Shown piece after piece: positions 8,977-38,564 of a stretch of DNA of 64,000 nucleotides; positions within the stretch are counted from its first letter, which is position 1; each line of letters starts with the position of its first letter. The translations under genes were made by a program, and so were the position numbers. The notes below the pieces were generated by a model that saw only the letters and a list, made by a program, of their open reading frames with translations, was not told the origin of the DNA and searched no databases. The stretch lies in UHGV virus genome UHGV-1366990; one strand, written 5' to 3'. Origin of the DNA: a virus.

Positions 8977-9044
8977 GATATACAGTTATTCACTAAACAA
9001 CAGAGGCTATAATGGCCTCTGTTTTCGTATTCTAAGAGGATACC

Positions 9045-10268: not shown

Positions 10269-10383
10269 AGATTCCCTTTACTTCGTTCTTCAATAACTCT
10301 TTTCAACGTATTATTGACCTCACTTAAACGAAGCGCCCTGGCAAACGGGGCGCACATTTGAACTGAAACAGGAAGACTACACC

Positions 10384-12402
10384 ATGTCAGAATTTAAGCC
10401 CTTCGCAGTAGCTGTTAACAACAACGTGCTGGCTATGTCAGCATCTGGTCTGTTCATGACCAACATCGATAAAGATGCTCTGTGGGATCTGTATCTGTCT
10501 TCTTTCCCTGCTGGTACCAACCCGCTCTACCGTGAGCGTACCGAGCACGACTGCACCTGCTGTAAACAATTCATCCGTAACATCGGCGGTGTGGTCACCA
10601 TCGACGCCGACCTGAACGTGATCTCTATCTGGGATAACATTCAGCTGGGTAACGAATACGACGTTGTCGCTGCGGCGCTGTCAGCGTATGTTAAGCAGCA
10701 CGCAATCGTCGACGTGTACTTCAACGACACCAAGAAAGTTGGTGTTGAGTCGAATCACGAAATGAAAGACGGTATTGTCCGCACCTACAACCACTTCCAC
10801 ACCGACCTGCTGGGCAGCTATGTTCTGCGGGCAGATACCATCGCTTCTAAGAAGGGTGAAATCCGCCAGGCGATTGAAGTGTTTGAGCGCGGCCTGCGTG
10901 AACTGTCTCTGGAATCGGCTGAAATCGTTCTGGAATTGATTGACCAGAATTCTCTGTATCGCGGTGAAGAGCACAAAGCGGCAGTGCAGGCGTTCGTGGT
11001 GAACAAGACCCTGTACGAACAAACTGCAGAAGAGAAACGCGCTCTGTGGGCTTGGCGCACTGGCTACCGTGCAAACGGTCATACCCCTCACGGCATTCGT
11101 AATACCGTGATTGGCTCTCTGCTGGTAGACCTCAATGAAGGCCGGGATCTGGAAACCGCCGTGAAGTCCTTTGAAGCCAAAGTCGCTCCGACGAACTACA
11201 AGCGCCCAACCGCGCTGGTCACGAAGTCCATGATTGAAAACGCGCAGAAAGAAGTCGAAGCGCTGGGCCTGACCGATTCACTGGGTCGCCGTTATGCCGT
11301 GTATGACGATCTGACCATCAACAATGTTCTGTTCGCCGATCTGGCAGCTCAGAAGAAGATGGACCCGTTTGCTCAGCTGGCGTCTGAAGTGAAGACTCCG
11401 ACCAAGTCCCTGGACAAGGTTGAAGAGATCACGATCGACGACTTCCTGACCAACGTGTTGCCAAAGGCGCATTCCCTGGAAGTACTGGTTGAAAACTCTC
11501 ACATTGGCAACCTGATGTCCCTGATCGCTCCGGCTACCGCAGGCGCTCCTAACCTGTTCAAGTGGAACAACGGCTTCAGCTGGTCGTACAATGGCGAAGT
11601 GGCCGACTCCATCAAAGAGCGCGTGAAGACCGCAGGCGGTAATGTCGACAGTTTCCTCCGTGTGTCACTGGCTTGGCATAACAACGACGACCTGGATCTG
11701 AGCATGAACGATCCTCTTCACAACCACGTGTATTATCACAACCGTCGTTCGACAACTGGCGCAACTCTGGACATCGACATGAACGGTATGGACGGCATTG
11801 ATCCAAACCGCCGTCCGGTGGAGAACATCTTCTTCAGCGATGAACGCAAGCTGCGTGATGGTCTGTACGAGTTCTATGTCACTAACTTCAGCCAGCGTGA
11901 AACCTGTGATATGGGCTTCGAAATCGAAGTTGAATACAAAGGCCAGACCAAGCGTTTTTCGCATCCTGGCCTGAAGCACAAAGATCGCACTCTGGCTGTT
12001 GTGATTGATGTCCGCGCTGGACAAGTGGTAGACATCCGTTCTACCCTGAAAGACGACGCTCGCTCTCAGGAAATCTGGGGCATCAAGACCTCCGTCTTCC
12101 AGAAGGTACAGCTGGTTCTGAACTCACCAAACCATTGGGACGGCGAGCAGACTGGCAACAAGCACGTGTTCTTCATCCTGGAAGGTTGTGCTAACCCTGT
12201 CGGCACCCGTGGTTTCTATAACGAATATCTGAAGCCGGAACTTGATAAACACCGCAAGGTTTTTGAAATGTTAGGCGGTAAGATTAAAGTACAGCCAAGC
12301 ACTGAGCAGCTGTCCGGTCTGGGCTTCTCTACCACCCAACGCAACCACGTGTTCGTGAAGGTGAGCGGTTCGTTCAACCGCACTGTGAAAGTTGTGTTCT
12401 AA
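10384..12402 (+). CDS. Hypothetical protein (672 aa)
   Basis: Long ORF with RBS AGGAAG; no recognised catalytic motif. Confidence 0.7.
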   Translation: MSEFKPFAVAVNNNVLAMSASGLFMTNIDKDALWDLYLSSFPAGTNPLYRERTEHDCTCCKQFIRNIGGVVTIDADLNVISIWDNIQLGNEYDVVAAALSAYVKQHAIVDVYFNDTKKVGVESNHEMKDGIVRTYNHFHTDLLGSYVLRADTIASKKGEIRQAIEVFERGLRELSLESAEIVLELIDQNSLYRGEEHKAAVQAFVVNKTLYEQTAEEKRALWAWRTGYRANGHTPHGIRNTVIGSLLVDLNEGRDLETAVKSFEAKVAPTNYKRPTALVTKSMIENAQKEVEALGLTDSLGRRYAVYDDLTINNVLFADLAAQKKMDPFAQLASEVKTPTKSLDKVEEITIDDFLTNVLPKAHSLEVLVENSHIGNLMSLIAPATAGAPNLFKWNNGFSWSYNGEVADSIKERVKTAGGNVDSFLRVSLAWHNNDDLDLSMNDPLHNHVYYHNRRSTTGATLDIDMNGMDGIDPNRRPVENIFFSDERKLRDGLYEFYVTNFSQRETCDMGFEIEVEYKGQTKRFSHPGLKHKDRTLAVVIDVRAGQVVDIRSTLKDDARSQEIWGIKTSVFQKVQLVLNSPNHWDGEQTGNKHVFFILEGCANPVGTRGFYNEYLKPELDKHRKVFEMLGGKIKVQPSTEQLSGLGFSTTQRNHVFVKVSGSFNRTVKVVF

Positions 12403-12446
12403 ACCTGATTTGAAATTGTAACCCATTCATCATTGAGGATAGTAAA

Positions 12447-12818
12447 ATGTTTGATAAAGCAACCCGTATGAAACTGCGCTTCGAGTCTAACAAAGGCCTG
12501 TTGTCTGTTGAGCAGGTCTGGGACCTGAGCCTGACTGCCCTGAACGAAATGGCGAAAGGTCTGAGCCGTCAGGTGAAAGCAGCAGAAACCGATGAAGAAG
12601 ATTTCATTGGTACCAAAAGCAACGTTGACTCCGAACTGCAGCTGCGCTTCGACGTTGTCAAGCACATCATCGGCGTTAAGCTGAAAGAACGTGACGACAG
12701 CAGAGAAGCGGCAGAGCGTAAGGCGAACAACCAGGTTATCCTGGAGCTGATCCAACGTAAGAAACAGCAAGAGCTGGAAAGCAAATCTGTTGAAGAACTG
12801 GAAGCGCTGCTGAAATAA
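12447..12818 (+). CDS. Hypothetical protein, charged/coiled-coil-like
   Basis: 123-aa ORF followed by a rho-independent terminator. Confidence 0.6.
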   Translation: MFDKATRMKLRFESNKGLLSVEQVWDLSLTALNEMAKGLSRQVKAAETDEEDFIGTKSNVDSELQLRFDVVKHIIGVKLKERDDSREAAERKANNQVILELIQRKKQQELESKSVEELEALLK

Positions 12819-12842
12819 CCCTGTTGGCCTCGGCCTGAGCAA

Positions 12843-12868
12843 CCCCGCCATGTGCGGGGTTTCTTTTT
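12843..12868 (+). terminator. Rho-independent terminator
   Basis: CCCCGC..GCGGGG stem followed by TTTCTTTTT. Confidence 0.6.
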
Positions 12869-12879
12869 GGACAAAGAAT

Positions 12880-13281
12880 ATGAAACTTGTCATCTGTGAT
12901 TACTGCGGCCTCCTAGCCGAATTCGTCGGTGGTGATGTTCTCTACCCTCATCGCCCTGACCTCCGCAATCTGAAGTTCTGGGTGTGCACTCCATGTGATG
13001 CCCGTGTCGGTTGCCATGCCCATGGCGACGGCAGACAACCTTTGGGAAGGATGGCGAATGCCGCTCTCCGTGCTGCTAAGCAGGAAGCCCATAGATCGTT
13101 TGACCCATTGTGGAAAAGCGGAGAGAGGAGCAGGAGCGACGCTTACAGTTGGCTGGCGCATGAGCTGGGGATAAAGAAGCGTGAGTGTCATATTGGCTTG
13201 TTCGATATCGACATGTGCCGTAAAGTAGTTGCTGTATGCAACCAATTACGGGAAACACAGAATGGCAACCATCAATCGTAA
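12880..13281 (+). CDS. Zinc-ribbon protein (CxxC...CxxC; DUF3268-like)
   Basis: MKLVICDYCG...WVCTPCDARVGCHAHG pattern recalled from prophage zinc-finger proteins; internal ATG of ORF 12850..13281. Confidence 0.55.
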   Translation: MKLVICDYCGLLAEFVGGDVLYPHRPDLRNLKFWVCTPCDARVGCHAHGDGRQPLGRMANAALRAAKQEAHRSFDPLWKSGERSRSDAYSWLAHELGIKKRECHIGLFDIDMCRKVVAVCNQLRETQNGNHQS

Positions 13282-14056
13282 TGAACCCCAAGGTGTTGAG
13301 CTGAAGGGTAAATCTGTTCGCGAAGGTCTAAGGCTATCTCCAGATCTTCTGAAGTCACACATTGCCGAAGTCATCTATGAAGACCGTGAAGTCGGCGGCC
13401 ACCGCGTCATCACCTGCCACTTCAAGATGGACAACGGCTTTGTCGTGTGGGGTAAGAGTAGCTCTACTTCCATCGACCCTGCCAACTTTGATGAAGAGTT
13501 GGGCAAGAAGCTGGCCTATGACAAGACCTTCTCCCAGTTGTGGGAACTGGAAGCCTACCGCGCCGTTGTGGAGAAGCAGATGTTGGAGGTGGCTACCGCC
13601 GATGCGAAGATAGACATCTTCCAGTACATCTCCGAAAGGGGGAAGATAAATCATATGGCTGGGATGGAATTCTTACAAGGCCACGGTCAGTCTTTCGTGT
13701 TCCGACATCCACGAGACCCAAGTCGCGGATTCGGTGCTGAATTTATTCAGACTGACAACGAACGCCACAACGAACAATTCAATGGTAAATCCCGAGAGAA
13801 GGTTGAAGCCTATCTGCGTTCGTTCATGCGCCCGGATGAATTGTATTCTGAACTCGTTGTTCGTCTGGCCAAGACTTGCATGGCGGCCTACAAGGGTGGG
13901 ATCTACTTTAATGCCACCTCTTGGGATAAGATGAGCGCCGAAGAACAGAAAGACTGCTGTGATGACGTCAGGCGGCTCTTGCTGGCTCCGACGGATTATA
14001 CCCCAACCGACCAGAAGGATGCGCTGTTCAAGGCCATCGTTGATTCTTACAAATAA
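13262..14056 (+). CDS. Hypothetical protein
   Basis: Internal ATG (MATINRNEPQ) of ORF 13229..14056; overlaps upstream gene by 20 nt. Confidence 0.55.
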   Translation: MATINRNEPQGVELKGKSVREGLRLSPDLLKSHIAEVIYEDREVGGHRVITCHFKMDNGFVVWGKSSSTSIDPANFDEELGKKLAYDKTFSQLWELEAYRAVVEKQMLEVATADAKIDIFQYISERGKINHMAGMEFLQGHGQSFVFRHPRDPSRGFGAEFIQTDNERHNEQFNGKSREKVEAYLRSFMRPDELYSELVVRLAKTCMAAYKGGIYFNATSWDKMSAEEQKDCCDDVRRLLLAPTDYTPTDQKDALFKAIVDSYK

Positions 14057-14087
14057 CTGAATTATCAAAGTCCTTCAATAACAATAA

Positions 14088-14118
14088 CGCCCAGTATATT
14101 TGCTGGGCGTTTCAATTT
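14088..14118 (+). terminator. Rho-independent terminator
   Basis: CGCCCAG..CTGGGCG stem followed by T-rich tract. Confidence 0.5.
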
Positions 14119-14129
14119 GTACATCACAG

Positions 14130-14135
14130 TATAAT
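14130..14135 (+). promoter_or_regulatory. -10 hexamer TATAAT upstream of 14167
   Basis: Perfect TATAAT 32 nt upstream of ATG; -35 weak. Confidence 0.35.
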
Positions 14136-14166
14136 ACGGCTGTACAATACACCATGAGGTTACATT

Positions 14167-14435
14167 ATGTTTCGTTTGAAATTGAACGACCAAGATGTGT
14201 TCTACAAACACTTCACCTTCCCAGGTGGTGAGGAACATATCAAGATTCAAAAATCTGGTATCCCTATCGGCCATGTTCAGAACGTGGTGATTGATGCTCA
14301 CATCAAATCATCAGACGTTCAGAAGCGGTTGGCTCTATCCAGCGCCTGTGGGAGATCTTTGAAACTGGGCACTTCCTGTTGGATGAGCACATCGGCCTGA
14401 TCTACGGTGATTCTATCACCCCCCCTGGCGCGTGA
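14167..14435 (+). pseudogene. Small gene apparently split by a frameshift (frame 1 from 14167 continuing in frame 3 to stop 14433..14435)
   Basis: Frame-1 ORF 14167..14400 ends in low-complexity tail while the overlapping frame-3 stretch 14295..14435 (no ATG) reads as a natural C-terminus (IQRLWEIFETGHFLLDEHIGLIYGDSITPPGA). Confidence 0.35.
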
Positions 14436-14485
14436 AGACCGCTATTAAATCCCAACAGGGCGTCGTCTCTGTTAAGTGAGATCAA

Positions 14486-14701
14486 ATGATACTGAAAGAA
14501 TGTTTTACCGACCTGAAGGCGACGTCTGAAAGTATTCCGGCTTGCATTCAGAACTATGCTCCAAAGGATGTGCTCTTGGCTCAGCTGGAGCAGTCTCGTG
14601 AGTTTATCAACAATATGCTGGACTCTGTAAAGACGCGCATCGAAGCCGCTGATGAGTCTGAACTTAACCCTTACGCACAAGGCGAAGAGAACAATGATTG
14701 A
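14486..14701 (+). CDS. Hypothetical small acidic protein
   Basis: 71-aa ORF, stop overlaps next start (ATGATTGA); weak RBS. Confidence 0.4.
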   Translation: MILKECFTDLKATSESIPACIQNYAPKDVLLAQLEQSREFINNMLDSVKTRIEAADESELNPYAQGEENND

Positions 14702-16895
14702 ATCATTAGAATTTAAGAATGCGGTTGCGACTGCTGCCCCGTCCAACCATGTAATCGTTGTAGACATTTCCGGCTCTATGTACCGTGCGCTCCCTGAAGT
14801 CCGTAAGCATCTGAAGGAGAACCTGCCTTCCCTGGTGAAACCGGAAGACACTGTGAGTGTTCTATACTTCTCATCCAAAGGCGACTTTGGCACTGTGTTC
14901 GCTGGCCGTCAGATCAATGCAGCATCCGACCTGAGCGAAATCAACAATCTGATTGACCGTTTCCTGCAACCATCCGGCTGTACTGGTTTCGTTGAGCCAT
15001 TGAAACTGGCGATGGACACTGCTCGTGGCCTGAAGAAGCCTGGCTATGTCAACAACCTGGCGTTCATGACTGACGGGTATGACAACTGCTGGCGTACCAA
15101 CGAAATTCTACTGGTTGCTGAGACCCTGCCATTTGCTTTTGATAACATTACATTTATCGAATATGGCTGGTACTGTAACCGCGAACTGCTGGCGCAGATG
15201 GCCGAACGCTCTGGTGCTACTCACGTGTTTGCCGAAGGTCAGACCGAATACCAGACCGAGCTGGAAAACGTGCTGAAGTCATCAGTGCCGAAGGTGAAAG
15301 TTGATGTCCCAGTCATCTACACCCATGCCATCTACGTCGAAAACGGTGTGGCAACAGTACTGGCGGTGCAGGACGATGACTCTCACCCGGTCGGCTATGT
15401 GAGCATCCCTGAGAGCGTCACCAAGCTGTGGGTTGTAAACCCTAACATGATCGACCAGCTTGATGCGCTGGCGGATATCCAGGCGGCATACGTGCTGGCG
15501 TTCTACGGCGTACACATCATGGACGCGGACCTGGTGTGGGCTGCACTGAAGAAAACAGGTGACGTTCGCTTCATCAAACAGTACAGCAACTGCTTCACCA
15601 AGCAGGACTACTCCAACATCAAGAACGATCTGGTTCAGGCGATTGTTGAAGACCAGCTGCGCGGCGTTGACGGTATTGACTATGACCTGGTTCCGGCTGA
15701 AGATGCGACCACCGTCGTTGATGTGCTGACGTACCTGGCTGAAGCTGGTGTGCCTGTTGCTACCAAGCATCCGATGTTCTCCTATAAGAGTATCGGGCGC
15801 GGTACTGTGCAGAAAACCGACGACACCGAAGACAAGCTGGCAGAACAGATCGCGAATGCTCAGTCCAAAGAAGAGCGTAAAGCCCTGGCTCTCAAGCTGG
15901 CAGAGCACGAAGAGTGGAACCCGACGTTCGAACCTACCAACGACCTGGGTGTTGTGCCAATCAGTGATTTGGTCTATAACTTCGAGCGCCCGAACATCAG
16001 TGTGCGTACAATTCAACACGGTACTGTGGCTGTGCCTGAATTCGCACAGAAGAAGTTTGGCCTGCCTGAAGAACTGGACACTTTCCAGTGGCGCAACTAC
16101 ACCATCGTCAAAGACGGTATCATCAACGTGAAGACTCTGCCGTTCAAGGCTGATATCGAAGTTGTACAGAAGCTGATCGAAATGGGCGTCCACGTGTTTG
16201 GTGGTCCGGAAGTGTTTGTCCTGAACCTGGAAAGCGTACCGCTGGTCAACCGCGCCATGGTCAAGAACATCAGTGCTGCTCAGTTCTTTGCGGATAATGT
16301 CCGTCTGGAAGCCCTGAAAGGTAAGCAGAAGGTGCTGAAGTTCTATCGAGACGCCCTGGTTGGTAAGGGTAACGCCAAAGGCCTGGCAGTACAGTACGGC
16401 GCTGAGGCGGCCGAGTTCCTGTCCTCCTACGGCATCCGCGATTACGGCTTCTCACCGAAGACTGAGACCAAAGAGTCTACCGACTTCTACATGAGCCGTG
16501 AGCTGAACGTGAAGATCGCCGGGGCGTCTTCACTACCGAGCATCGCGGCAGTACAGAAGAAGATCGCAGAGAACAAGAAACTCAATGCTGGTGACTTGTT
16601 CATCGCCAATGCTCTGAAAGAGTACGAAGCATTCGTGAAGTCTCCTATGATCACTGCCGTGCCTGAAGCCTTACAGAAACAGCTGATCGAAAACTGGATC
16701 GACGCTGCTGCCAAGGCGGCCATCACCGAAGTCCGTGCCCTGAACAAGACGCTGTCTAAAGTGGTGTATGGTATCGTTGCTGGTCATGGCTGGTTCACCG
16801 ACCTCGACCTGGAAGAGTCCACCATGGAAGTTGAAGTGGATGGCGTGAAGTACAAGGTCACTGCCGAACTGACAGAGAAAGAAATCAAAATCTAA
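14694..16895 (+). CDS. von Willebrand factor A (vWA) domain protein, 733 aa
   Basis: N-terminal VIVVDISGSM (DxSxS MIDAS motif) and downstream MTDGYDN; long C-terminal region of unknown function. Confidence 0.75.
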   Translation: MIESLEFKNAVATAAPSNHVIVVDISGSMYRALPEVRKHLKENLPSLVKPEDTVSVLYFSSKGDFGTVFAGRQINAASDLSEINNLIDRFLQPSGCTGFVEPLKLAMDTARGLKKPGYVNNLAFMTDGYDNCWRTNEILLVAETLPFAFDNITFIEYGWYCNRELLAQMAERSGATHVFAEGQTEYQTELENVLKSSVPKVKVDVPVIYTHAIYVENGVATVLAVQDDDSHPVGYVSIPESVTKLWVVNPNMIDQLDALADIQAAYVLAFYGVHIMDADLVWAALKKTGDVRFIKQYSNCFTKQDYSNIKNDLVQAIVEDQLRGVDGIDYDLVPAEDATTVVDVLTYLAEAGVPVATKHPMFSYKSIGRGTVQKTDDTEDKLAEQIANAQSKEERKALALKLAEHEEWNPTFEPTNDLGVVPISDLVYNFERPNISVRTIQHGTVAVPEFAQKKFGLPEELDTFQWRNYTIVKDGIINVKTLPFKADIEVVQKLIEMGVHVFGGPEVFVLNLESVPLVNRAMVKNISAAQFFADNVRLEALKGKQKVLKFYRDALVGKGNAKGLAVQYGAEAAEFLSSYGIRDYGFSPKTETKESTDFYMSRELNVKIAGASSLPSIAAVQKKIAENKKLNAGDLFIANALKEYEAFVKSPMITAVPEALQKQLIENWIDAAAKAAITEVRALNKTLSKVVYGIVAGHGWFTDLDLEESTMEVEVDGVKYKVTAELTEKEIKI

Positions 16896-16901
16896 TCCAA
16901 C

Positions 16902-16925
16902 GGGCGGGGCAACCCGCCTTTCTTT
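16902..16925 (+). terminator. Rho-independent terminator after vWA gene
   Basis: GGCGGGG/CCCGCC stem followed by TTTCTTT. Confidence 0.6.
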
Positions 16926-16937
16926 GGGAGAAGTAGC

Positions 16938-17261
16938 ATGAGCAGTAAACCAACATATGTTGAAGTCATGCGTCATCTGGCTCAGTACGCCACCGACAAT
17001 CTGAATATGGATCTGTGGCGTGACGATGACAAGCGCAAATTGCTGGACGACGTGGCATCTCAGAACGAGGACGCCCTGGACAAGCTGGCTGGCCTCCGTA
17101 CCAAGAAAGACCTCGGCGGTGATGAACTGGACGCTATCGAAATCGTAATGGACCTCGAAGAAGAGTTTCAGGTCGAAATCGACGACGGCTGGCTGGGTAG
17201 TAAAGGCGATGACCCGACCATGGGTGAACTCGCTGAACTCGTGGTTGCCCTGCGCAAATAA
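16938..17261 (+). CDS. Acyl-carrier-protein-like protein with Glu in place of the phosphopantetheine-site Ser
   Basis: DLGGDELDAIEIVMDLEEEFQVEI aligns with E. coli ACP [24 protein letters not shown]; flanked by terminators. Confidence 0.7.
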   Translation: MSSKPTYVEVMRHLAQYATDNLNMDLWRDDDKRKLLDDVASQNEDALDKLAGLRTKKDLGGDELDAIEIVMDLEEEFQVEIDDGWLGSKGDDPTMGELAELVVALRK

Positions 17262-17267
17262 CAGAAG

Positions 17268-17292
17268 TCCCCAACAAACGTTGGGGATTTTT
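17268..17292 (+). terminator. Rho-independent terminator after ACP-like gene
   Basis: TCCCCAAC/GTTGGGGA stem followed by TTTTT. Confidence 0.6.
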
Positions 17293-17303
17293 ACTTTTAG
17301 GGG

Positions 17304-17332
17304 TTTACTTCCTCTAAGGAATGTCCTATTAT
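17304..17332 (+). promoter_or_regulatory. Early-type promoter TTTACT-N17-TATTAT
   Basis: Exact 17-bp spacing; directly follows terminator hairpin. Confidence 0.6.
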
Positions 17333-17383
17333 TCAATAACTGGCGAACGATGGGTTCACCGGGTTGAAAGGTAAGATTATATC

Positions 17384-17623
17384 ATGAAGAACAAAATGGT
17401 CGAAACTTCAGTAGAGATTGATCGCAATTGGGGATTGCTCCGCGCTAAAGGGTTCCGCCGTGTGTATGCGACCAAAGAAGTCTACGCACAGCGTCGTGAC
17501 GTTATCATCAGCAAGAAAGGCAAAGAGTGGGTTGCTGAAGAAGTTGATGTCGAGACAGGCATCGTAGGAAAGGTAAAGGCCAAGGCCGCGATCCTCTTCG
17601 CTCTTCTGAAGCACATCAGTTAA
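17384..17623 (+). CDS. Hypothetical small basic protein
   Basis: 79-aa ORF downstream of TTTACT-N17-TATTAT promoter. Confidence 0.55.
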   Translation: MKNKMVETSVEIDRNWGLLRAKGFRRVYATKEVYAQRRDVIISKKGKEWVAEEVDVETGIVGKVKAKAAILFALLKHIS

Positions 17624-17682
17624 TTCTATAACTTTGGGCGGGGTATGATTACCCCGTCTATTTGAAACCAAGAGACTATATC

Positions 17683-18057
17683 ATGAAAAAGTTAATCCTC
17701 GCTGTTGCCCTGCTGGGCGCTTCCTTTGCTGCTGTTTCCGCCCCTCCTGTCATCACCGGAGTGTCTACCAACGGTGTTTATGCTTTCAAGGCGTATGGCC
17801 AAGACCTCGTTCTGTATAAGAACGGGAAGATGATTGAGCGCTGCGTATCAGACGACGTGAATCGTGGGATCGACAATCAGGGTAGCCCATACGTCCTGGA
17901 CATCTATTCCTGCTCCAACGGGACGAAGTCCTTTGGCGTCAAGACCTTTGGCAACGTCGCCGACGGTGGCTGGGGCTTCATGTTCGAAACCCGCAACCAC
18001 CACCCGGTCAAGACCATGCAAGAAGAGTTCTTGATCTCTGTCGGGGGTACGTTATGA
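17683..18057 (+). CDS. Secreted protein with N-terminal signal peptide
   Basis: MKKLILAVALLGASFAAVSA signal peptide; internal ATG of ORF 17662..18057. Confidence 0.65.
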   Translation: MKKLILAVALLGASFAAVSAPPVITGVSTNGVYAFKAYGQDLVLYKNGKMIERCVSDDVNRGIDNQGSPYVLDIYSCSNGTKSFGVKTFGNVADGGWGFMFETRNHHPVKTMQEEFLISVGGTL

Positions 18058-18341
18058 CACCATCAGAGAGAAGTTCTATCAAGGAGATGATCAGAGACAA
18101 GGCGTGTGTTGGCCATACTCAGTCAGAGAACATCTTGCGCCTGATGGTAATAAAGAACGATATCGACAACAGCCGATTCCAAACAGCGTTGTATGGCATG
18201 CTGGAGTTTATATCGCGGTCATCTGATCTTGGCACGGTCCGATATCTTGACGATCTGACCAAGCTGCTGAACACGGGCGGGGAAACTTTCGACGCCGCTC
18301 GTATCCTGATTGACGGTGGACCTGAAGAAGACGAGGTATAA
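18054..18341 (+). CDS. Hypothetical protein
   Basis: 95-aa ORF with ATGA overlap to upstream gene. Confidence 0.5.
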   Translation: MTPSERSSIKEMIRDKACVGHTQSENILRLMVIKNDIDNSRFQTALYGMLEFISRSSDLGTVRYLDDLTKLLNTGGETFDAARILIDGGPEEDEV

Positions 18342-18501
18342 TTTGGATAAAGAATTGGTTTGGGAAATTGTGAAGGGTGTCCTAGTAATAATCGCGGTGG
18401 TTTTCATCTTGGGTGGGAACTTCTTCTATTGGTTATTCCGATCCGACCAGAAACGTCGCGAACGCAAGGAGAAAGAGAGAAAGGATCGATGGATGCGCTA
18501 A
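18310..18501 (+). CDS. Small membrane protein (single TM helix, basic C-terminus); start uncertain
   Basis: Hydrophobic stretch VLVIIAVVFILGGNFFYWLF then KRRERKEKERK. Confidence 0.4.
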   Translation: MTVDLKKTRYNLDKELVWEIVKGVLVIIAVVFILGGNFFYWLFRSDQKRRERKEKERKDRWMR

Positions 18502-18533
18502 CTAAGGGATAACCCTATATCCCGAGGTGTGTC

Positions 18534-18983
18534 ATGTTCCTTACATCTTTTATTGACTGGTTGAACATCATTAACGGCCTGAGGATTCCTGTTGGGAACC
18601 TCGGGCTTTCTCGTTCTTCTATGCCGCAAATCGATGCCGACAAACAAGAAGATTTTCACAAATATCTTGAAGACAACGGCGTGTCCATAGATGCTGTGCA
18701 AGTGCCCATCAAAATGCTTCGTCTTACCCAGAACGAAATCAACAAGATGAAGGTCTGGAAGATCATGAAGAACATCAGAAATAAGAAACCTATGGGTCGA
18801 GTTTGGGTGTCTTCTGACAATTACGTTGTTGACGGTTCTCACCGATTTGTCGCTGCGTTGAACATGGACGGCAAACAGCGCATGAAGGTCTACAAAGTTG
18901 ATTTGCCAGCGATGGAATTTGTTAAACTCGCTAAACAGTTTCAGGGTGTGCGATACAGAACGGTCAGTGATACCCGTTTCTGA
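18534..18983 (+). CDS. Hypothetical protein
   Basis: 149-aa ORF with RBS GAGGTG. Confidence 0.55.
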   Translation: MFLTSFIDWLNIINGLRIPVGNLGLSRSSMPQIDADKQEDFHKYLEDNGVSIDAVQVPIKMLRLTQNEINKMKVWKIMKNIRNKKPMGRVWVSSDNYVVDGSHRFVAALNMDGKQRMKVYKVDLPAMEFVKLAKQFQGVRYRTVSDTRF

Positions 18984-19062
18984 ATACGATAGTTTATTGA
19001 ATCCCTTTACTCAACATGGTGAGCCGCCTATCATTTCATCCAATGAAATAAGGAGAATCGCC

Positions 19063-19749
19063 ATGAAACGTTTAATCCTCGGGGTTGTGCTGGCTGGTCT
19101 GGCATTACCCGCCGCTGCCAAGCTGAACTCCACAGGTGATAAACTGTGGTCCGACCTTTCCTATTGTGCTGGGTTCTCCCAGGCGGTTGCCATCGACAAG
19201 TCTGGTTCCATAGAGAACTTCGCTGAACTCTGGAACACAGGCAACGTCTCCACTGCTGTCGTCAATGCCGGAATTGAGTTCAACCGTTACAAACAGGGAG
19301 CCTATAACCTCAAGGGCTACCTCAATGACGACGAATTTAACCGTGGAGGCATGGAGGCTGGCGATTTAATCATGACTGGGCGTATGGGCACCCAAGGCCG
19401 GATGACCGTAAGACAGTGCCGTTCGCTCCCTTCTCCGGCATTACAGAAGGGTGTGCAGGTTGGTCGCCGCCACCTGAACCTCATCAACGATGGCAACCAG
19501 TGCGTCAAAGTATTCGAATACAGCGCCACGCAGACCTCTGATCGCGTCCTGAAGAAGGAATGGCGTACTCGCGCTCTCGGTCTCAGAGCCTGGCTGGTTG
19601 AGAACGATTATTACTTTGAAGACAGGGTTCAGAACGGTCTGAAAGACCTGGCCACGAATCTGAGCGTGAACCTTGATGATCCTCGCATGTCGCGCGAACT
19701 CCAGCAGACTCGTGTTGACTGCGACAATATGATGAAGGAGAACGAGTGA
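19063..19749 (+). CDS. Secreted protein with N-terminal signal peptide
   Basis: MKRLILGVVLAGLALPAAA signal peptide; RBS AGGAG; internal ATG of ORF 18898..19749. Confidence 0.65.
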   Translation: MKRLILGVVLAGLALPAAAKLNSTGDKLWSDLSYCAGFSQAVAIDKSGSIENFAELWNTGNVSTAVVNAGIEFNRYKQGAYNLKGYLNDDEFNRGGMEAGDLIMTGRMGTQGRMTVRQCRSLPSPALQKGVQVGRRHLNLINDGNQCVKVFEYSATQTSDRVLKKEWRTRALGLRAWLVENDYYFEDRVQNGLKDLATNLSVNLDDPRMSRELQQTRVDCDNMMKENE

Positions 19750-20075
19750 TGAAATGTAAAATCCTGCTCTTGTTGGTACTGATAGCCGGGTGTGTAAACG
19801 CCGCGCCACCGTCCAAACTGAACACATGTGTGGCATGGATGGAGACGTATCAGCAGTTCCACCCAGATGACAAGGATACATCTATCCTCCTGTCCGACTT
19901 CGAGGGGGAGCTGAAGCGCCTTGATCTGTTCAGTGTTGATCAGATAGAGAATGCGCTGGATCTTCCCATGATGCTGACTGCGGCTGATAACAGTCCACAA
20001 ACGAAGAAAGACCTGATGTATTGTCGGGGGATTGCCCAGGACTTTGTCGGATTTCAAAATAAAGTTTCGGGTTAA
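19749..20075 (+). CDS. Putative lipoprotein
   Basis: Lipobox-like LLVLIAGC near N-terminus; start overlaps upstream stop. Confidence 0.55.
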   Translation: MKCKILLLLVLIAGCVNAAPPSKLNTCVAWMETYQQFHPDDKDTSILLSDFEGELKRLDLFSVDQIENALDLPMMLTAADNSPQTKKDLMYCRGIAQDFVGFQNKVSG

Positions 20076-20114
20076 AATTTAGCCCTACATTGTGAACTGA
20101 AGGAATACACTGTG

Positions 20115-20981
20115 ATGCTCCTGACCAAAACAATCGCTGCGGCGATTATCGAAAAGAATAAGGCTTTTGCCCCCAACGCAGCCAAAGTTATGTTGGTACA
20201 CGAAGACGCTCGCGTGATCTTCGCCGAGAAGTTCGAGATGGGTGCGAAGTTCTGGTATGCCGACAACTTACGTGAGAGCAAACTTCAGGGTATCATCCAC
20301 AAACTGACTCTGGTCGCCAAGCGTAATGACCAGGGTGACTGGGTCGGCGTTTCTGACTTCAGTACGAAGATCACCCCAAAGGCTCCGCTTTCTCGTCAAG
20401 AGCGCATTCTGGAAGCCCAGGAAAAGCTGCGTGCGGCTCGGAGTACCACAAAGGCGAAACCAGATACAAGCCCTGTCATCAAGCCAGCGGTTGTTCCTAA
20501 GTCCAAATACCTCCCACCCGTGAGTCAAAAGGCTGTGGAGCAATTGGTTGAGAAGCGCAAGGGTGACGTTGTGATGAAGTCTGACTCTTCAGTGGAGCCG
20601 TTCAAGCCGGATCCAGCAGAAGTACAGGCGCTGGCAGAAAAGGTAAAGAATTCACAATTCATTTCCCTGCGTGAACTTGAACCGCCTACTCGCCGTCGTA
20701 TCGCCAACGAGCTGTTTGTGTCGTTCAGGTCGGATGGTAAGATCATCCTGTGCAAAGCCCTGCGCGATGCAATCCCTTGGACAACTCTGAACATGATGGT
20801 CACTCGCGACTTCAAGCGTTTTGGTATCATGCAAGGCAAGGACTACAACGTCAACCAGAGCGGGACTTATGTTAATCGCGCCATGTGTGACAAACTGACC
20901 TTCCCAGAAGATACCGGAACGATCCGTGTCGTTCTGAATTGGGACGACAAGCTGAACATGTATGTTGGCGATTTCCAATAA
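20115..20981 (+). CDS. Hypothetical protein
   Basis: 289-aa ORF (ATG at 20115 after GTG at 20112). Confidence 0.6.
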   Translation: MLLTKTIAAAIIEKNKAFAPNAAKVMLVHEDARVIFAEKFEMGAKFWYADNLRESKLQGIIHKLTLVAKRNDQGDWVGVSDFSTKITPKAPLSRQERILEAQEKLRAARSTTKAKPDTSPVIKPAVVPKSKYLPPVSQKAVEQLVEKRKGDVVMKSDSSVEPFKPDPAEVQALAEKVKNSQFISLRELEPPTRRRIANELFVSFRSDGKIILCKALRDAIPWTTLNMMVTRDFKRFGIMQGKDYNVNQSGTYVNRAMCDKLTFPEDTGTIRVVLNWDDKLNMYVGDFQ

Positions 20982-20992
20982 TCAATAACCTC

Positions 20993-21024
20993 GGGCGGCT
21001 TATCATAAAGCTGCCCTTTCATTT
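20993..21024 (+). terminator. Possible terminator hairpin
   Basis: GGGCGGC..GCTGCCC stem (one G-U pair) followed by TTTCATTT. Confidence 0.4.
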
Positions 21025-21037
21025 GAGAGACTATATC

Positions 21038-21700
21038 ATGGAAAAACTTTATTCTATTATCGTCGGTCCTGATCCTGACGGATTATTCTTCGCCCCGTTG
21101 TCTTATATTGCCCACGCCCGTATCGGTAGCCATTACGCATATTGCACACGTGGCCACGACGGTTCCAATATCCTCCATTATAACCGCATGAACGATTTCC
21201 TGGCACTTCAACCAGAAGATGTTGTGCTGGCGCGTCGCGTGTTCATCGACTTCAACGCTATGCACAACAACGAAATTGACGCTCGCTATCATGCCATGCG
21301 TTCTATGGAAGGGGGAGACTGCATTTATCGCATCGACCATTTTAGTGAGTTTACCGAATGTATTGATTGGTTCGTTTCAGAAAAGACGTTGGGTGAAAGA
21401 ATCGTCACAACTCCGTGGGCGCATGCGGAACAACTTCGTGTGTCTACCGATGCGTACAAAGAAGTCGACAATCTGTGCAACAAGTTCCGCATCTCGGTGA
21501 CCTGTAATCAAGACCTGGGCGAAGAGATACAATGGACAGCTGAGTCTCCTCATTTCAGTGGCCTGGTGATGACGGCCGAAACCCGTTCCCGTGCTGTTGT
21601 CCAGTTAGTACTCTGGGCGTTCTACCAGCGCACCCCGTTCTCATACATGGGACAGAAAGAGATTGATGAACTCCTGAAGTCTCACGCGGTGGAGGTGTAA
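21038..21700 (+). CDS. Hypothetical protein
   Basis: Internal ATG (MEKLYS) of ORF 20939..21700, preceded by GAGAGACTATATC leader. Confidence 0.6.
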   Translation: MEKLYSIIVGPDPDGLFFAPLSYIAHARIGSHYAYCTRGHDGSNILHYNRMNDFLALQPEDVVLARRVFIDFNAMHNNEIDARYHAMRSMEGGDCIYRIDHFSEFTECIDWFVSEKTLGERIVTTPWAHAEQLRVSTDAYKEVDNLCNKFRISVTCNQDLGEEIQWTAESPHFSGLVMTAETRSRAVVQLVLWAFYQRTPFSYMGQKEIDELLKSHAVEV

Positions 21701-21701
21701 T

Positions 21702-22142
21702 ATGGCTGGCGTATGGTGTGATGTCTTGCTGGTTCGTTACAGCGTAAATGGGTGTGCCCAAGTGCGTTCCGCCTTCTATCCAGTACCGTTCTCCTCTGGT
21801 GGCCTTACAGCCCAGAGGGTGTTAAGTATCGAAGCAGAACTGAACGCGAAGACATATATCGGCGATACACAAGTGTTGGGATACGATCTTCTGAACGAAA
21901 TGTTGATCGATGAAGATAAGGTAGAAACCATTATTGTTAGCCGTCAAGAAATGGAGGTCTTGATGAAACCGGAAGGCACCGAAAAGACTGAAGTTCAAAC
22001 GGTGTCTGTGCCTGTCACACCAACACAGGAACGCCTTGATGCCATTGCTGGATTATTCACGCATGGATTTTGTGATGATCGCATGGCTCGTGGTATCTAT
22101 GCCGCCGCACTGGGCGTTGAGAAACAAACGGAGCAAATATGA
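21702..22142 (+). CDS. Hypothetical protein
   Basis: 146-aa ORF adjacent to upstream stop. Confidence 0.5.
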   Translation: MAGVWCDVLLVRYSVNGCAQVRSAFYPVPFSSGGLTAQRVLSIEAELNAKTYIGDTQVLGYDLLNEMLIDEDKVETIIVSRQEMEVLMKPEGTEKTEVQTVSVPVTPTQERLDAIAGLFTHGFCDDRMARGIYAAALGVEKQTEQI

Positions 22143-22183
22143 GCACAAAGACTGAAGACGTGGCGAAAGGCTATTAATTCCGC

Positions 22184-22212
22184 TTTATTCAATAAAATTT
22201 GTTAGTTAAACT
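22184..22212 (+). promoter_or_regulatory. Promoter TTTATT-N17-TAAACT upstream of HU gene
   Basis: 17-bp spacing, 55 nt upstream of ATG 22268. Confidence 0.45.
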
Positions 22213-22267
22213 GTAGTCCTCTTGTAGTGAACATGAAAGTAAACATTAACCCAACGGAGAAATCCAG

Positions 22268-22546
22268 ATGAATCGTACTGAATTTGTTGCCCACATTGCT
22301 TCGACCCAGAATATCACCAAAGGCGAAGCGGAGAAAGTAGTGGCATCCTTTATCAACGGTGTTAAAACTGCAGTTGCTGCGGGCGCATCTGTACAGCTGG
22401 TCGGCTTCGGTGCGTTCGAAGTGAAACACCAAGAAGCGCGTGAAGGCCGCAACCCTCTGGACGGCCAGACCATTCAGATCGCGGCGAAAAACGTTGTGAA
22501 ATTCAAAGTGGGCGAAGGTCTGAAGAACGCTGCCAACGGCAAGTAA
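22268..22546 (+). CDS. HU/IHF family histone-like DNA-binding protein
   Basis: 92 aa; LVGFGAFEVKHQEAREGRNPLDGQTIQIAAKNVVKFKVGEGLK matches HU arm motifs (GFGxF, RNPxTG). Confidence 0.85.
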   Translation: MNRTEFVAHIASTQNITKGEAEKVVASFINGVKTAVAAGASVQLVGFGAFEVKHQEAREGRNPLDGQTIQIAAKNVVKFKVGEGLKNAANGK

Positions 22547-22598
22547 TTCTATCTGACGCGCGGCCAGACTCTGCAATACAGGGCATGGCAAAAGAGAA

Positions 22599-22626
22599 AG
22601 CCGGAGTACAATGCTCCGGCTTTTTC
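22599..22626 (+). terminator. Rho-independent terminator after HU gene
   Basis: GCCGGAG/CTCCGGC stem followed by TTTTT. Confidence 0.6.
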
Positions 22627-22675
22627 GTTCTTGGGGATCGGGTAAACTATAGGCGAATCCCATAGGAGGAAGAAA

Positions 22676-25158: not shown

Positions 25159-25193
25159 AGTTTCATTCCTCTTTCTATAAAACCAGTTTGGGA

Positions 25194-25201
25194 TATTTAT
25201 A
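25194..25201 (-). promoter_or_regulatory. T4-type late promoter TATAAATA (minus strand)
   Basis: Plus-strand TATTTATA; 35 nt upstream of minus start at 25158. Confidence 0.6.
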
Positions 25202-25203
25202 TC

Positions 25204-25731: not shown

Positions 25732-25742
25732 GGACTATCATA

Positions 25743-29924: not shown

Positions 29925-29926
29925 TC

Positions 29927-38552: not shown

Positions 38553-38564
38553 AAATACTTCAAA

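Follow-up and report, generated by a model that had tools for sequence, protein, structure and literature searches.

The region at 17268 to 17332 of the phage genome UHGV-1366990 contains a GC-rich hairpin followed by two promoter-like hexamers, which raises the question of whether it is one copy of a dispersed element that joins a terminator to a promoter and, if so, to what class of phage promoter that element belongs. We analyzed the 64,000-nt stretch of DNA that carries this region (hereafter the window). The features of the sequence point, with a probability of roughly 0.7, to composite cassettes of the PeSL (promoter-early stem-loop) type, in which sigma-70 early promoters are joined to intrinsic terminators, in a T4-related ViI-like phage.

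Genome and Relatives

The window belongs to an Agtrevirus (Ackermannviridae, ViI-like) and is ~98% identical to phage AV101. Orthologous regions were compared in the genera Agtrevirus, Limestonevirus, Kuttervirus, and Taipeivirus, with Nezavisimistyvirus added for sites 2, 4, and 5; the phages named below are AV101, AG3 (phiSboM-AG3), LIMEstone1 (HE600015), RC-2014, PhaxI, Menlow, and Erwinia phage phiEa2809. Our literature search found no transcript mapping or RNA-seq for Ackermannviridae and no experimentally shown promoter or terminator, and a 2024 review of the family mentions neither promoters, terminators, sigma factors, nor transcription. The virion DNA of ViI-like phages contains a hypermodified thymidine (5-NeOmdU), so that the rules for unmodified DNA need not predict how these T-rich hexamers are recognized once the DNA has been injected.

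A Recurrent Motif Ahead of Co-oriented Genes

A pattern search of both strands found TTTACW-N17-TATWMT five times in the window, each time on the plus strand:

17304–17332, plus strand: site 1, followed by the ATG at 17384
32062–32090, plus strand: site 2, followed by the ATG at 32139
38594–38622, plus strand: site 3, followed by the ATG at 38696
45680–45708, plus strand: site 4, followed by the ATG at 45759
56715–56743, plus strand: site 5, followed by the ATG at 56812

All five are intergenic and co-oriented with the next gene, 48 to 73 nt 5′ of its ATG, and the five ATGs are those that the first-pass annotation had given. Dinucleotide-preserving shuffles of the whole window gave a mean of 0.02 matches (maximum 1), and 5,000 composition-preserving shuffles restricted to the intergenic gaps (5.7 kb, 57% A+T) gave a mean of 0.019 (maximum 1); the combined −35/−10 pattern is >200-fold above expectation. 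A matrix derived from the orthologues was run on the window and AV101 1–50000, the window itself standing in for AV101 50001–69468. It returned the same five sites at 19.7 to 30.5 bits, followed by scores of 14.3 and 12.4 bits, with no minus-strand site above a threshold at which shuffles give ~1.5 matches. The 12.4-bit match at 14109 (GTTTCA-N15-TATAAT) was rejected because its score is at noise level and its geometry does not fit. A generic sigma-70 consensus scan of 10001–30000 returned 20 promoter-like sites (17.9 expected) and a generic terminator scan 19 sites (18.8 expected); with the sigma-70 scan at background, the signal resides in the specific motif.

The −35 hexamer is TTTACT at four sites and TTTACA at one, and is kept in all aligned orthologues except the degenerate element of LIMEstone1 that corresponds to position 10277 (see below). 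The −10 hexamer is TATTAT or TATACT, exactly 17 bp from the −35 in the window and 17 bp, or in three cases 16 bp, in the orthologues. Orthologous positions in four to five genera retain both hexamers of sites 1 to 4 and their 16/17-bp spacing, with divergent sequence in between, and GGTTTACT and TATnnT(TC) are likewise held in place across the compared genera, figures that are partly circular because the sites were chosen by regular expression. The hexamers match the E. coli consensus at 4/6 (−35) and 5/6 (−10) positions, and a TGn extended −10 (TG at −15/−14) is found at none of the five sites. Only sites 3 and 5 have A/T-rich DNA upstream; at sites 2 and 4 a GC hairpin occupies the UP-element position.

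The AV101 flanking stretches each contain one more exact copy, at 5166 and 116754, both 5′ of a co-oriented gene, and the total is ~8 copies across the AV101 stretches with the window as their middle (~157 kb). The AV101 late structural block (~38 kb) has no exact match. The T4-type late motif TATAAATA has just two occurrences, each on the minus strand, the strand of the late genes. The cassettes are dispersed repeats: six window sites (the sixth is described below) and AV101 5166 and 116754 are alike from the −35 through the Shine–Dalgarno sequence (SD) and ATG, with the consensus GGTTTACTTCTTCAATAAC..CGTATAATTCA...GGAAnTATATCATG in the alignment of paralogues. The first genes 3′ of the cassettes encode small proteins. 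All five of those in the window, as well as the gene at 10384, are of “unknown function” in PHROGs, so gene identity is uninformative on timing. An Rfam search of the window matched no known RNA family; the conserved leaders are thus not a described riboswitch or leader.

Site 1, the Sixth Site, and a Degenerate Copy

The features of site 1 and of the two related elements are as follows:

16938–17261: acyl-carrier-protein gene, its stop codon just 5′ of the site 1 hairpin
17268–17287, plus strand: hairpin TCCCCAAC-aaac-GTTGGGGA, then TTTTT (dG −17.2 kcal/mol)
17288–17303, plus strand: T-tract and degenerate second −35 (TTTACT, 17290–17295)
17304–17332, plus strand: predicted promoter, with −35 TTTACT (17304–17309), 17-bp spacer, and −10 TATTAT (17327–17332)
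17333–17383: leader
17384–17623, plus strand: gene for 79 aa (phrog_804)
18994–19034, plus strand: sixth site, TTATTGAA-tccc-TTTACT (19006)-N17-TATCAT (19029), 5′ of the gene at 19063–19749
10277–10353, plus strand: degenerate or atypical copy, TTTACT (10277)-N26-TATTAT (10309) at 10277–10314, with TTCAATAA at 10289, 5′ of the gene at 10384
10333–10353: hairpin 3′ of that copy, GCGCCCTGG-caa-ACGGGGCGC

The site 1 hairpin is listed as Torf141 in AG3 and as a terminator in LIMEstone1, where the orthologue of the promoter is already labeled “putative early promoter.” The −35 had been described as following or overlapping the 3′ arm of a hairpin at three sites. This holds at 32062 and 45680; at 17304 the two are 16 nt apart, and it is the degenerate TTTACT that follows the stem. 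The segment 17288–17303 resembles an 18-nt tandem duplication and is missing in AG3 (an 18-column alignment gap). In the AG3 orf138 copy and in Menlow site 1, TTTACT-N16/17-TATWAT has a hairpin downstream instead.

The earlier roster overlooked a sixth site, at 19006, whose −10 is TATCAT. With 14.3 bits this site alone would be near noise; it is kept in AG3, RC-2014, PhaxI, and Menlow (four genera). The weaker copy that had been proposed 5′ of 10384 has a 26-bp spacer, not that of a 17-bp promoter, looks degenerate, and was rejected as a member of the class. Its arrangement is kept in AV101 and AG3 and largely in LIMEstone1 (ATTACT as the −35-like hexamer, 25-bp spacer), in which only the −10 is annotated, as “putative promoter.” AV101 has a 1.3-kb segment in place of 140 bp of the window, and homology resumes at 10261, 16 nt 5′ of this copy.

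Sites 2 to 5

32038–32045: TTCAATAA upstream of the site 2 hairpin
32048–32061, plus strand: site 2 hairpin GGGGC-tttt-GCCCC (dG −14.2 kcal/mol)
32062–32090, plus strand: site 2 predicted promoter, TTTACT, spacer with TTCAATAT, TATACT
32118–32141: conserved translation start region TTGAATAGCAGGAACTATATCATG at the end of the site 2 leader
32139–32474, plus strand: gene for 111 aa (phrog_9866)
38529–38547, plus strand: site 3 hairpin GGCCTC-attcgac-GAGGCC, then TTTT (dG −12.2 kcal/mol); Torf101 in AG3
38580–38622, plus strand: site 3 predicted promoter, TTATTGAA (38580–38587), aaagac, TTTACT (38594–38599), c, TTCAATAA (38601–38608), tgatgcac, TATTAT (38617–38622)
38696–39184, plus strand: gene for 162 aa (phrog_3764)
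45663–45679, plus strand: site 4 hairpin GCCCCTC-aat-GAGGGGC, 3′ of a glutaredoxin-like gene (dG −16.5 kcal/mol); Torf088 in AG3
45680–45708, plus strand: site 4 predicted promoter, TTTACT-N17-TATACT
45739–45761: site 4 translation start region TTGAAAGCGGGAACTATATCATG
45759–46220, plus strand: gene for 153 aa (phrog_3902)
56651–56669 and 56676–56691: weaker hairpins of site 5
56700–56743, plus strand: site 5, with TTCAATAA (56700–56707) and −35 TTTACA (56715–56720)
56736–56741, plus strand: conserved −10 candidate TATATT of site 5 (15-bp spacer)
56738–56743, plus strand: alternative −10 TATTAT of site 5 (17-bp spacer)
56812–57648, plus strand: gene for 278 aa (phrog_3905)

The last base of the hairpin touches the −35 at sites 2 and 4. 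The site 2 hairpin is kept in 5/6 phages with varying loops, and AV101 has a paralogous cassette at 116727–116754 whose leader is similar. At site 3, an A/T-rich interval of 46 nt separates the stem end from the −35, and the whole intergenic region shows ~84% identity across four genera. The 17-bp spacer and TATACTTCC of site 4 are found in 6/6 phages.

Site 5, which is Porf069 in the AG3 list and carries the label “putative early promoter” in LIMEstone1, departs in part from what had been claimed for it. TTTACA-N17-TATTAT is present, but TATTAT is not the hexamer conserved across genera. That hexamer is TATA(T/G)T, and its distance from TTTACA is 15 bp in the window and RC-2014 and 16 bp in AG3, PhaxI, and Menlow.

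The Predicted Terminator Part

At sites 1 to 4 the hairpins lie just 3′ of stop codons, with A-tracts before and T-tracts after them; the stems have 5 to 8 GC-rich pairs, the loops 3 to 7 nt, and dG is −12 to −17 kcal/mol. Loops vary between phages while stems are kept. In phiEa2809 the site 4 stem is GCCCGGA/TCCGGGC (dG −16.2 kcal/mol), still abutting CTTTACT, with three positions changed on both sides and pairing retained; we identified these compensatory changes by inspecting the sequences and confirmed them by folding, as MAFFT misaligns the left arm with its longer loop. No nucleotide separates the stem from the −35 at sites 2 and 4; site 1 has a gap of 16 nt and site 3 one of 46 nt, and site 5 has the weaker hairpins only. 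The tails read TTTTTACTTTT (site 1), TTTACTTCTT (site 2), TTTTAAAAT (site 3), and TTTACTTCTA (site 4). Three U residues into the tails of sites 2 and 4 the run of U is broken, so termination there may be partial.

Gene Gain and Loss at the Cassettes

The ORFs next to the cassettes differ between phages. At site 1 of AG3, two promoter copies enclose an additional ORF (orf139); at site 2, an unchanged promoter and leader precede orf111, orf112, or both, depending on the phage, and copies of a 16-bp repeat, GGAACTATATCATGAC, flank the AG3 insertion; in PhaxI an extra ORF stands immediately 3′ of site 4. Junctions of insertions and deletions are found at sites 1, 2, and 4 and at a cassette of hairpin plus start region (17624–17682), with junction repeats of 16, 17, and 50 bp. 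The gene for an Alt-like RNA polymerase ADP-ribosylase, present in AV101 and not in the window, has its junction between two repeated cassettes. About half of the larger differences between the window and AV101 (a homing endonuclease, the interior of a variable gene) lie away from any cassette, and the link between cassettes and indels is accordingly tentative in statistical terms.

Proposed Mode of Action

If our preferred reading holds, transcripts of the upstream gene would form the GC-rich hairpin and stop, or be attenuated, at the U-rich tract; at sites 2 and 4 this tract (UUUACUUCU) would be the transcript of the same DNA that serves as the −35. Host RNA polymerase with sigma-70 would bind TTTACT, the 17-bp spacer, and TAT(T/A)(A/C)T and begin a new transcript ~7 nt 3′ of the −10. 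The resulting leader of 45 to 75 nt would end in a shared ribosome-binding region, TTGAAAG..GGAAcTATATCATG. The cassettes would act early and might insulate neighboring transcription units, and as repeats they may offer short homologous stretches through which phages acquire, lose, or exchange small ORFs.

A single promoter class of the T4 early type with its terminators would provide a testable map of prereplicative transcription units and would reconcile the inconsistent GenBank labels (“early,” “middle,” “terminator only”). The cassettes could also supply compact promoter/terminator parts for engineering, given that biocontrol and chassis design make wide use of Ackermannviridae (ViI-like) phages.

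An Octamer Around the −35

The preferred reading could be extended by a further layer of control. The octamer TTCAATAA occurs 12 times in place of the 2.28 expected (about five-fold), a number that 0/100 shuffles reached; 10/12 copies are intergenic (9 in called gaps and one, at 63901, just after the last called gene), and six copies accompany the six sites with TTTACW-N17. An inverted pair, TTATTGAA-N5/6-TTTACT-N1-3-TTCAATA(A/G), is found at site 3, at AV101 5139–5179, and in two phiEa2809 promoters, and in the site 2 orthologues the octamer is kept while adjoining spacer bases change. These counts would suit sigma-70 promoters under additional control by a putative DNA-binding protein that reads TTCAATAA/TTATTGAA around the −35 and spacer, an addition to the preferred explanation that we consider unlikely. 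The placement of the octamer relative to the −10 varies (7, 8, 12, 13, or 14 bp upstream, overlapping the −10, or 5′ of the −35), as does its orientation, and two of the five window sites have no octamer in the spacer. TTCAATA, which had been described as usual in the spacer, is there at only 2/5 sites (32070 and 38601); at 17332 it overlaps the last −10 base, and at 56700 it is 5′ of the −35. Furthermore, copies 5′ of the −35 could be plain A/T-rich, UP-like DNA, shared spacers could stem from the common descent of duplicated cassettes, and the analysis yielded no candidate for the binding protein. A reading of TTCAAT as the −35 was rejected, its distance to −10-like hexamers ranging inconsistently from 7 to 16 bp.

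In its most specific form, which we likewise hold to be doubtful, the octamer TTCAATAA/TTATTGAA, which in several cassettes brackets the −35 as the inverted pair TTATTGAA-N5/6-TTTACT-N1-3-TTCAATAA, would be the operator of a phage or host regulator that switches the promoter class together, for example in early shut-off. Terminator, promoter, and operator would then overlap in <60 bp and give a first handle on the transcription program of Ackermannviridae.

Improbable Alternatives: Middle Promoters and Terminator Tails

Could these be middle-class promoters that depend on an activator analogous to T4 MotA/AsiA? TTTACTT would then be a variant MotA box (TGCTT to TACTT) read by a phage activator and not by sigma-70 region 4. 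The elements do share with T4 middle promoters a sigma-70-type −10 and a T-rich element with CTT ~30 bp 5′ of the start. The LIMEstone1 orthologue of site 3 is annotated “putative middle promoter” from the CTT just after TTTACT and the same TATTAT −10, and the intergenic region of site 2 is also labeled middle there, with other hexamers; these labels, however, are matches to T4 consensus patterns and not experiments. T4 P46 tolerates ACTT as a box center, and the neighboring genes are those of DNA metabolism, which are typically middle in T4. When aligned to the MotA box (a/t)(a/t)(a/t)TGCTTtA, on the other hand, the best candidate, gTTTACTTCT with its TACTT center, leaves 14 bp to the −10, more than the 12 ± 1 bp of T4, and one −35/−10 geometry with the 17 bp typical of sigma-70 is common to all sites. 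Homologues of T4 AsiA and MotA were sought by tblastn and phmmer, with queries checked against the PDB, in the window, AV101 1–50000 and 69469–116028 (with the window, ~116 kb of AV101 equivalent), and 50-kb stretches of AG3, LIMEstone1, and phiEa2809. Nothing significant was found within the reach of this search, which remote homologues could escape; the best match, at E = 0.028, is inside an annotated topoisomerase gene. We therefore downgraded the middle-promoter reading, which is now distinctly improbable.

That there is no promoter at all, TTTACTT being conserved only as the U-rich tail of a terminator and the TATnnT 17 bp farther on being an A/T-rich coincidence or part of the mRNA leader, would fit the start of TTTACT exactly at the stem base of sites 2 and 4, the AG3 list, in which gcccctcattgaggggctttactttt and gccccaacatttgttggggctttacttt are simply terminators, and the terminator-only annotation of site 4 in LIMEstone1, but it is very hard to credit given TTTACW without an adjacent GC hairpin at sites 3, 5, and 19006, the downstream hairpins of the AG3 orf138 copy and Menlow site 1, a −10 fixed at 16/17 bp in distant genera despite changing spacer bases, and the excess of the combined pattern over expectation.

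Comparison with Known Systems

PeSLs are sigma-70-like promoters with stem-loops, and lacZ fusions in RB49/phi1 demonstrated both their promoter and their terminator activity (Arbiol et al. 2010, PMC2839356); reporter activity and mini-circles have been shown experimentally only for these phages (PMC2839356). In T4/PST the consensus is TTTACW-N17-TAYWAT, with the stem-loop just 5′ of the promoter and an SD and ATG at the 3′ end (Comeau et al. 2014, PMC4122927). The cassettes of the window share this order, from a stem-loop just 5′ of the promoter to a terminal SD and ATG, and the consensus itself is almost identical to the window motif. Both combine an early-type promoter with a GC-rich (GGGG...CCCC) stem-loop that terminates upstream transcription, an activity that here is predicted only. 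Copies in both are dispersed before small ORFs of no assigned function (ORFans in T4-like phages), and ORFs are inserted, deleted, or swapped at the cassettes, with short junction repeats, an association that is tentative in our phages.

The two sets also differ. Our phages are Ackermannviridae and not members of the T4-like subfamily, and no paper in the collection searched treats PeSLs and Ackermannviridae together. Copies are far fewer here (~8 in ~157 kb) than in PeSL-rich T4-like regions; the −10 is often TATACT, outside TAYWAT; at two sites the −35 itself is the terminator U-tract, with zero spacing; and the octamer TTCAATAA recurs.

The likeness to T4 early promoters that the first-pass annotation had pointed out is borne out by the T4/PST PeSL consensus (PMC4122927) and by LIMEstone1, in which the orthologues of sites 1 and 5 are labeled early, with −35 GTTTAC and −10 TATTAT. 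In common with T4 early promoters, the −35 is (G)TTTAC and not TTGACA, the −10 is TAnnnT, the spacer has 17 bp, and upstream DNA is A/T-rich at sites 3 and 5; by analogy, unmodified host polymerase would be used. T4 has “uber” promoters with UP, −35, TGn, and −10 elements, whereas the hexamers here are weaker, with no TGn and with no UP element at sites 2 and 4.

Earlier annotations published for LIMEstone1 and AG3 agree with ours in taking sites 1 and 5 as early promoters with the same hexamers and the hairpins of sites 1, 3, and 4 as terminators, and the AG3 list includes Porf069 (site 5) and Porf138 (a site 1 paralogue). In contrast to our analysis, they divide the sites among the labels “early,” “middle,” and “terminator only” or rely on different hexamers (AG3 Porf100, LIMEstone1 ORF084), and the shared motif, its conservation across genera, and the relation between cassettes and indels went unrecognized. 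The cassette design is already known from T4-like phages, and its presence here is that of an expected design in another family, which does not overturn current understanding; it would extend the PeSL idea, that of a regulatory cassette doubling as a recombination linker for small accessory genes, beyond the T4-like subfamily.

A probable T4-early-like promoter motif recurs in intergenic gaps

Ackermannviridae phages were the matches to window bases 16000 to 22000 and 17000 to 41000 in similarity searches. Identity was ~97 to 98% for the top matches (Escherichia phages AV101, ZQ1, A221, and YX22), ~93 to 95% for vB_CECAV_050, 90 to 92% for SKML-39, MK-13, and similar relatives together with Limestonevirus, and ~78 to 80% for Kuttervirus and Taipeivirus. 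In annotated relatives, the + strand carries a T4-related replication and recombination block (sliding clamp, clamp loader, RegA, UvsW/UvsY, gp46/47, gp55 late sigma factor, primase, NrdAB, gp32, thymidylate synthase, UvsX, and gp41), and the minus strand carries a few late genes (baseplate, tail tube). Larger differences in content from AV101 lie in regions 13250-14432 and 39325-39779: AV101 has a 2.3-kb insertion at 14314-14432, annotated as ribose-phosphate pyrophosphokinase and nicotinamide phosphoribosyltransferase genes, and lacks ~450 bp of the window at 39325-39779.

The pattern TTTACW-N17-TATWMT has five exact matches in the window, all on the + strand and within intergenic gaps, against 0.02 expected from dinucleotide-preserving shuffles. 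Shuffling the gaps alone (n = 5000; 5.7 kb, 57% A+T) gave a mean of 0.019 matches and a maximum of one.

Exact motif matches (+ strand), first downstream genes, and neighboring hairpins (RNA folding)
Site 1: 17304; gene start 17384; hairpin 17268-17287, -17.2 kcal/mol
Site 2: 32062; gene start 32139; hairpin 32048-32061, -14.2 kcal/mol
Site 3: 38594; gene start 38696; hairpin 38529-38547, -12.2 kcal/mol
Site 4: 45680; gene start 45759; hairpin 45663-45679, -16.5 kcal/mol
Site 5: 56715; gene start 56812; weaker hairpins only

The -10 hexamer ends 48 to 73 nt upstream of the start codon at the five sites, and the first-pass annotation, which had placed at least five + strand genes behind this motif, had the start codons right. 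The motif search that it named as a check, run with a matrix built from orthologous sites, recovered the same five sites at 19.7 to 30.5 bits, at a threshold that gives ~1.5 matches in shuffles; the next-best scores were 14.3 and 12.4 bits, and nothing on the minus strand exceeded threshold. A generic sigma-70 scan remained at background (20 sites versus 17.9 expected in 10001-30000), so the signal resides in TTTACW-N17-TATWMT itself and not in general promoter-likeness. The -35 and -10 hexamers match the E. coli consensus at 4/6 and 5/6 positions, and a search for an extended -10 at the sites found none.

Some details of the earlier description do not hold. TTCAATA, said usually to lie in the spacer, is inside it at only two of five sites; the weaker copy proposed before the gene at 10384 has a 26-bp spacer; and at site 5, where the -10 had been read as TATTAT at 17 bp, TATA(T/G)T, spaced at 15 to 16 bp, is the hexamer conserved between genera. 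A sixth site had been overlooked: TTATTGAAtcccTTTACT-N17-TATCAT (18994-19034) scores weakly, yet it is conserved in AG3, RC-2014, PhaxI, and Menlow.

Hairpins beside the putative promoters

At sites 1 to 4, the hairpin lies a short way past the stop codon of the upstream gene, and a T-rich tail follows it. The -35 had been described as abutting a hairpin at three sites, which is correct for 32062 and 45680: TTTACT there directly follows the last stem base, so that the RNA copy of the -35 (UUUACUUCU) doubles as a putative terminator U-tract, interrupted at both sites. It is incorrect for 17304, where 16 nt containing a second, degenerate TTTACT separate stem and -35; in the alignment, AG3 site 1 lacks those 18 columns and its hairpin directly abuts the promoter. 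At 38594, 46 nt of A/T-rich sequence separate the hairpin from the -35.

In some cassettes, the promoter-like element comes first and the leader behind it contains a GC hairpin with a T-rich tail; in that position, the hairpin would serve as a 5' stabiliser or attenuator rather than as an upstream terminator.

Cassettes with a downstream hairpin
Window: element at 10277, then hairpin 10333-10353
AG3: Porf138, then Torf139, 40742-40837
Menlow: site 1, about 1030-1060

Another class of overlapping stop/start element, found in intergenic + strand positions, consists of a GC-stem hairpin followed by a T-run, with TATAAT (TATGAT or TATCAT in two cases) in the loop. Five such hairpins were counted versus 0.74 in block shuffles (shuffle maximum, 4). 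A transcript started from the loop -10 would carry the 3' arm only and would thus escape termination. The AG3 authors entered the 57677 element twice, as Porf067 and as Torf069.

Hairpins with a -10-like loop (+ strand)
8999-9023: TATAAT
52683-52700: TATAAT
57677-57705: TATAAT
63911-63939: TATAAT
17637-17658 and 20993-21016: TATGAT or TATCAT

Conservation across genera

The intergenic regions were aligned with orthologues from AG3 (Agtrevirus), RC-2014 (Limestonevirus), PhaxI (Kuttervirus), and Menlow (Taipeivirus), and from phiEa2809 (Nezavisimistyvirus) where an orthologue was identifiable. GGTTTACT and TATnnT, the latter usually followed by TC, occupy aligned positions in essentially every phage. 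Spacing at sites 1 to 4 is 17 bp (16 in three cases), and spacer sequences diverge, as at site 4 (TCTATAATCCCTGCGCT, TTTGAAACACCCTCCCC, TTTGAAAAAGCCAGACC, and ATTGAAATCCTCAAGCC). The site 4 hairpin abuts the promoter in all six phages; its stem is GCCCCC/GGGGGC in Menlow and GCCCGGA/TCCGGGC in phiEa2809, with three positions changed on both sides in the latter (dG, -16.2). At site 2, the stem is constant and the loop is TTTT, AAAC, AAAA, or TTCG. It is these alignments that constitute the evidence for conservation, and not the identity figures (spacer, 0.64; -10, 0.92), which are partly circular because the sites were chosen by regular expression.

The whole intergenic region before the gene at 38696 (38500-38695) is ~84% identical over four genera, including a 73-nt leader (agttcacatagggcg..ccgccgaatgaaaagtgaaacg) and an in-frame upstream ATG (ATGAGGAATTACATCATG), which suggests constraint on more than the promoter. 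This region had no Rfam match.

Distribution and shared sequence of the cassettes

With a 16- or 17-bp spacer allowed, AV101 1-50000 contains one exact pattern (5139-5166, minus strand), upstream of a minus-strand gene; AV101 110001-156759 also contains one (116727-116754), upstream of a co-oriented gene. None was found in the late structural block of AV101, and the window and AV101 stretches together give ~8 copies per genome. This pattern of strand and location fits a prereplicative promoter class. The T4-type late motif TATAAATA occurs twice in the window, on the minus strand only (25194-25201 and 54791-54798), in the gaps 25159-25203 and 54757-54809 just ahead of minus-strand late genes (24391-25158 and the tail-tube-initiator-like 53812-54756), a placement consistent with gp55-dependent late transcription of these genes.

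In a paralogue alignment, kinship of the cassettes extends beyond the hexamers: the consensus is GGTTTACTTCTTCAATAAC..CGTATA(A/C)TTCA, a leader, and TGAAAG..GGAAnTATATCATG. The AV101 116754 copy shares with site 2 the upstream AAATAATTCAATAAAAG, the promoter, and the leader TCATTCCATAAGCAG.AC.ACAC. A ribosome-binding region, (T)TGAAAG..GGA(A/C)(C/T)TATATCATG, is common to many + strand genes; it could be a target of the RegA-like translational repressor that the window encodes (7623-8087, by homology with AV101).

Other recurrent elements in the window
Ribosome-binding region, + strand: 17364-17386, 32118-32141, 45739-45761, 17670-17686, 21020-21037, and others
Octamer TTCAATAA, + strand: 10289, 14074, 17332, 22188, 32038, 38601, 56700, 62988, 63901
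Octamer TTCAATAA, minus strand: 18994, 38580, 52629

An extra regulator may conceivably act through the octamer, whose 12 copies compare with 2.28 expected; 10 of these are intergenic, and inverted pairs surround the -35 at site 3 (38580-38608), AV101 5166 (5139-5179), and two phiEa2809 promoters. Its position varies, however, and its recurrence may therefore reflect UP-like A/T DNA or descent of the cassettes from a common ancestor. Following a replaced segment, AV101 and the window become homologous again precisely at the 14074 copy.

It is unlikely that the sites belong to a MotA-like middle class, since aligning a box on TACTT would leave 14 bp before the -10, where T4 has 12 ± 1, and searches with T4 MotA and AsiA (query sequences verified against PDB entries) across the window, ~96 kb of AV101, and 50-kb stretches of three further phages returned nothing significant. 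Nor is TTTACT likely to be a terminator tail only, as the motif lacks an adjacent GC hairpin at three sites and the -10 is held at a fixed distance.

Indels at cassettes

At site 1, AG3 carries an additional ORF (orf139) flanked by two promoter copies, and its homology to the window is lost at 17297 and regained at 17364. Behind the site 2 promoter and leader stands orf111 in the window and RC-2014, orf112 in PhaxI and Menlow, and both in AG3, where the insertion is flanked by a 16-bp repeat, GGAACTATATCATGAC. PhaxI has an extra 77-aa ORF directly 3' of site 4, and in LIMEstone1 a 17-bp repeat of the shared start region borders the denV insertion on both sides. AV101 encodes a 168-aa Alt-like protein that matches the RNA polymerase ADP-ribosylase family (phrog_832, E = 1.4e-14) between two hairpin-plus-start-region cassettes, ggcggggtatgattaccccg..atttgaaa..ATG (AV101 21600-22260); the window has a single hybrid copy of that cassette at 17624-17682 without the gene, a pattern resembling gene loss or gain through recombination between repeated cassettes. 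The ribosome-binding region forms the microhomology at several indel junctions. Because other indels sit at homing endonucleases or within a variable gene, the association with cassettes is suggestive and not demonstrated.

Relation to known systems

Parts of these cassettes in Ackermannviridae have previously been predicted piecemeal only. The AG3 paper lists the promoters Porf069 (site 5), Porf138 (site 1 paralogue), and Porf100 (site 3, with other hexamers) and enters hairpins as terminators. The LIMEstone1 record, which took its labels from matches to T4 consensus sequences, calls the orthologues of sites 1 and 5 each a "putative early promoter" (-35 GTTTAC, -10 TATTAT), those of sites 2 and 3 a "putative middle promoter," and that of site 4 a terminator only. 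Our literature search found no paper connecting promoter-early stem-loops (PeSLs) with Ackermannviridae, and promoters and transcription go unmentioned in a 2024 review of the family. In virion DNA of ViI-like phages, 5-NeOmdU replaces a fraction of the thymidine, and these T-rich elements could be recognized differently on the injected genome as a result.

The motif is real, and the proposal of T4-early-like promoters in terminator cassettes was essentially right. The cassettes, composed of putative promoters and putative terminators, are an instance of a known design, the PeSL, or T4-early-type promoter joined to an intrinsic terminator. PeSLs of T4-like phages, assayed by lacZ fusions in RB49/phi1, combine a sigma-70-like early promoter with a stem-loop, often GGGG...CCCC, at which transcription from upstream ends, and they recombine with one another so that small ORFs between them are deleted, inserted, or swapped (PMC2839356). 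In T4 and PST, the promoter consensus is TTTACW-N17-TAYWAT, with the stem-loop just upstream and the SD and ATG at the cassette end (PMC4122927). PeSLs are exactly the kind of element predicted in the window.
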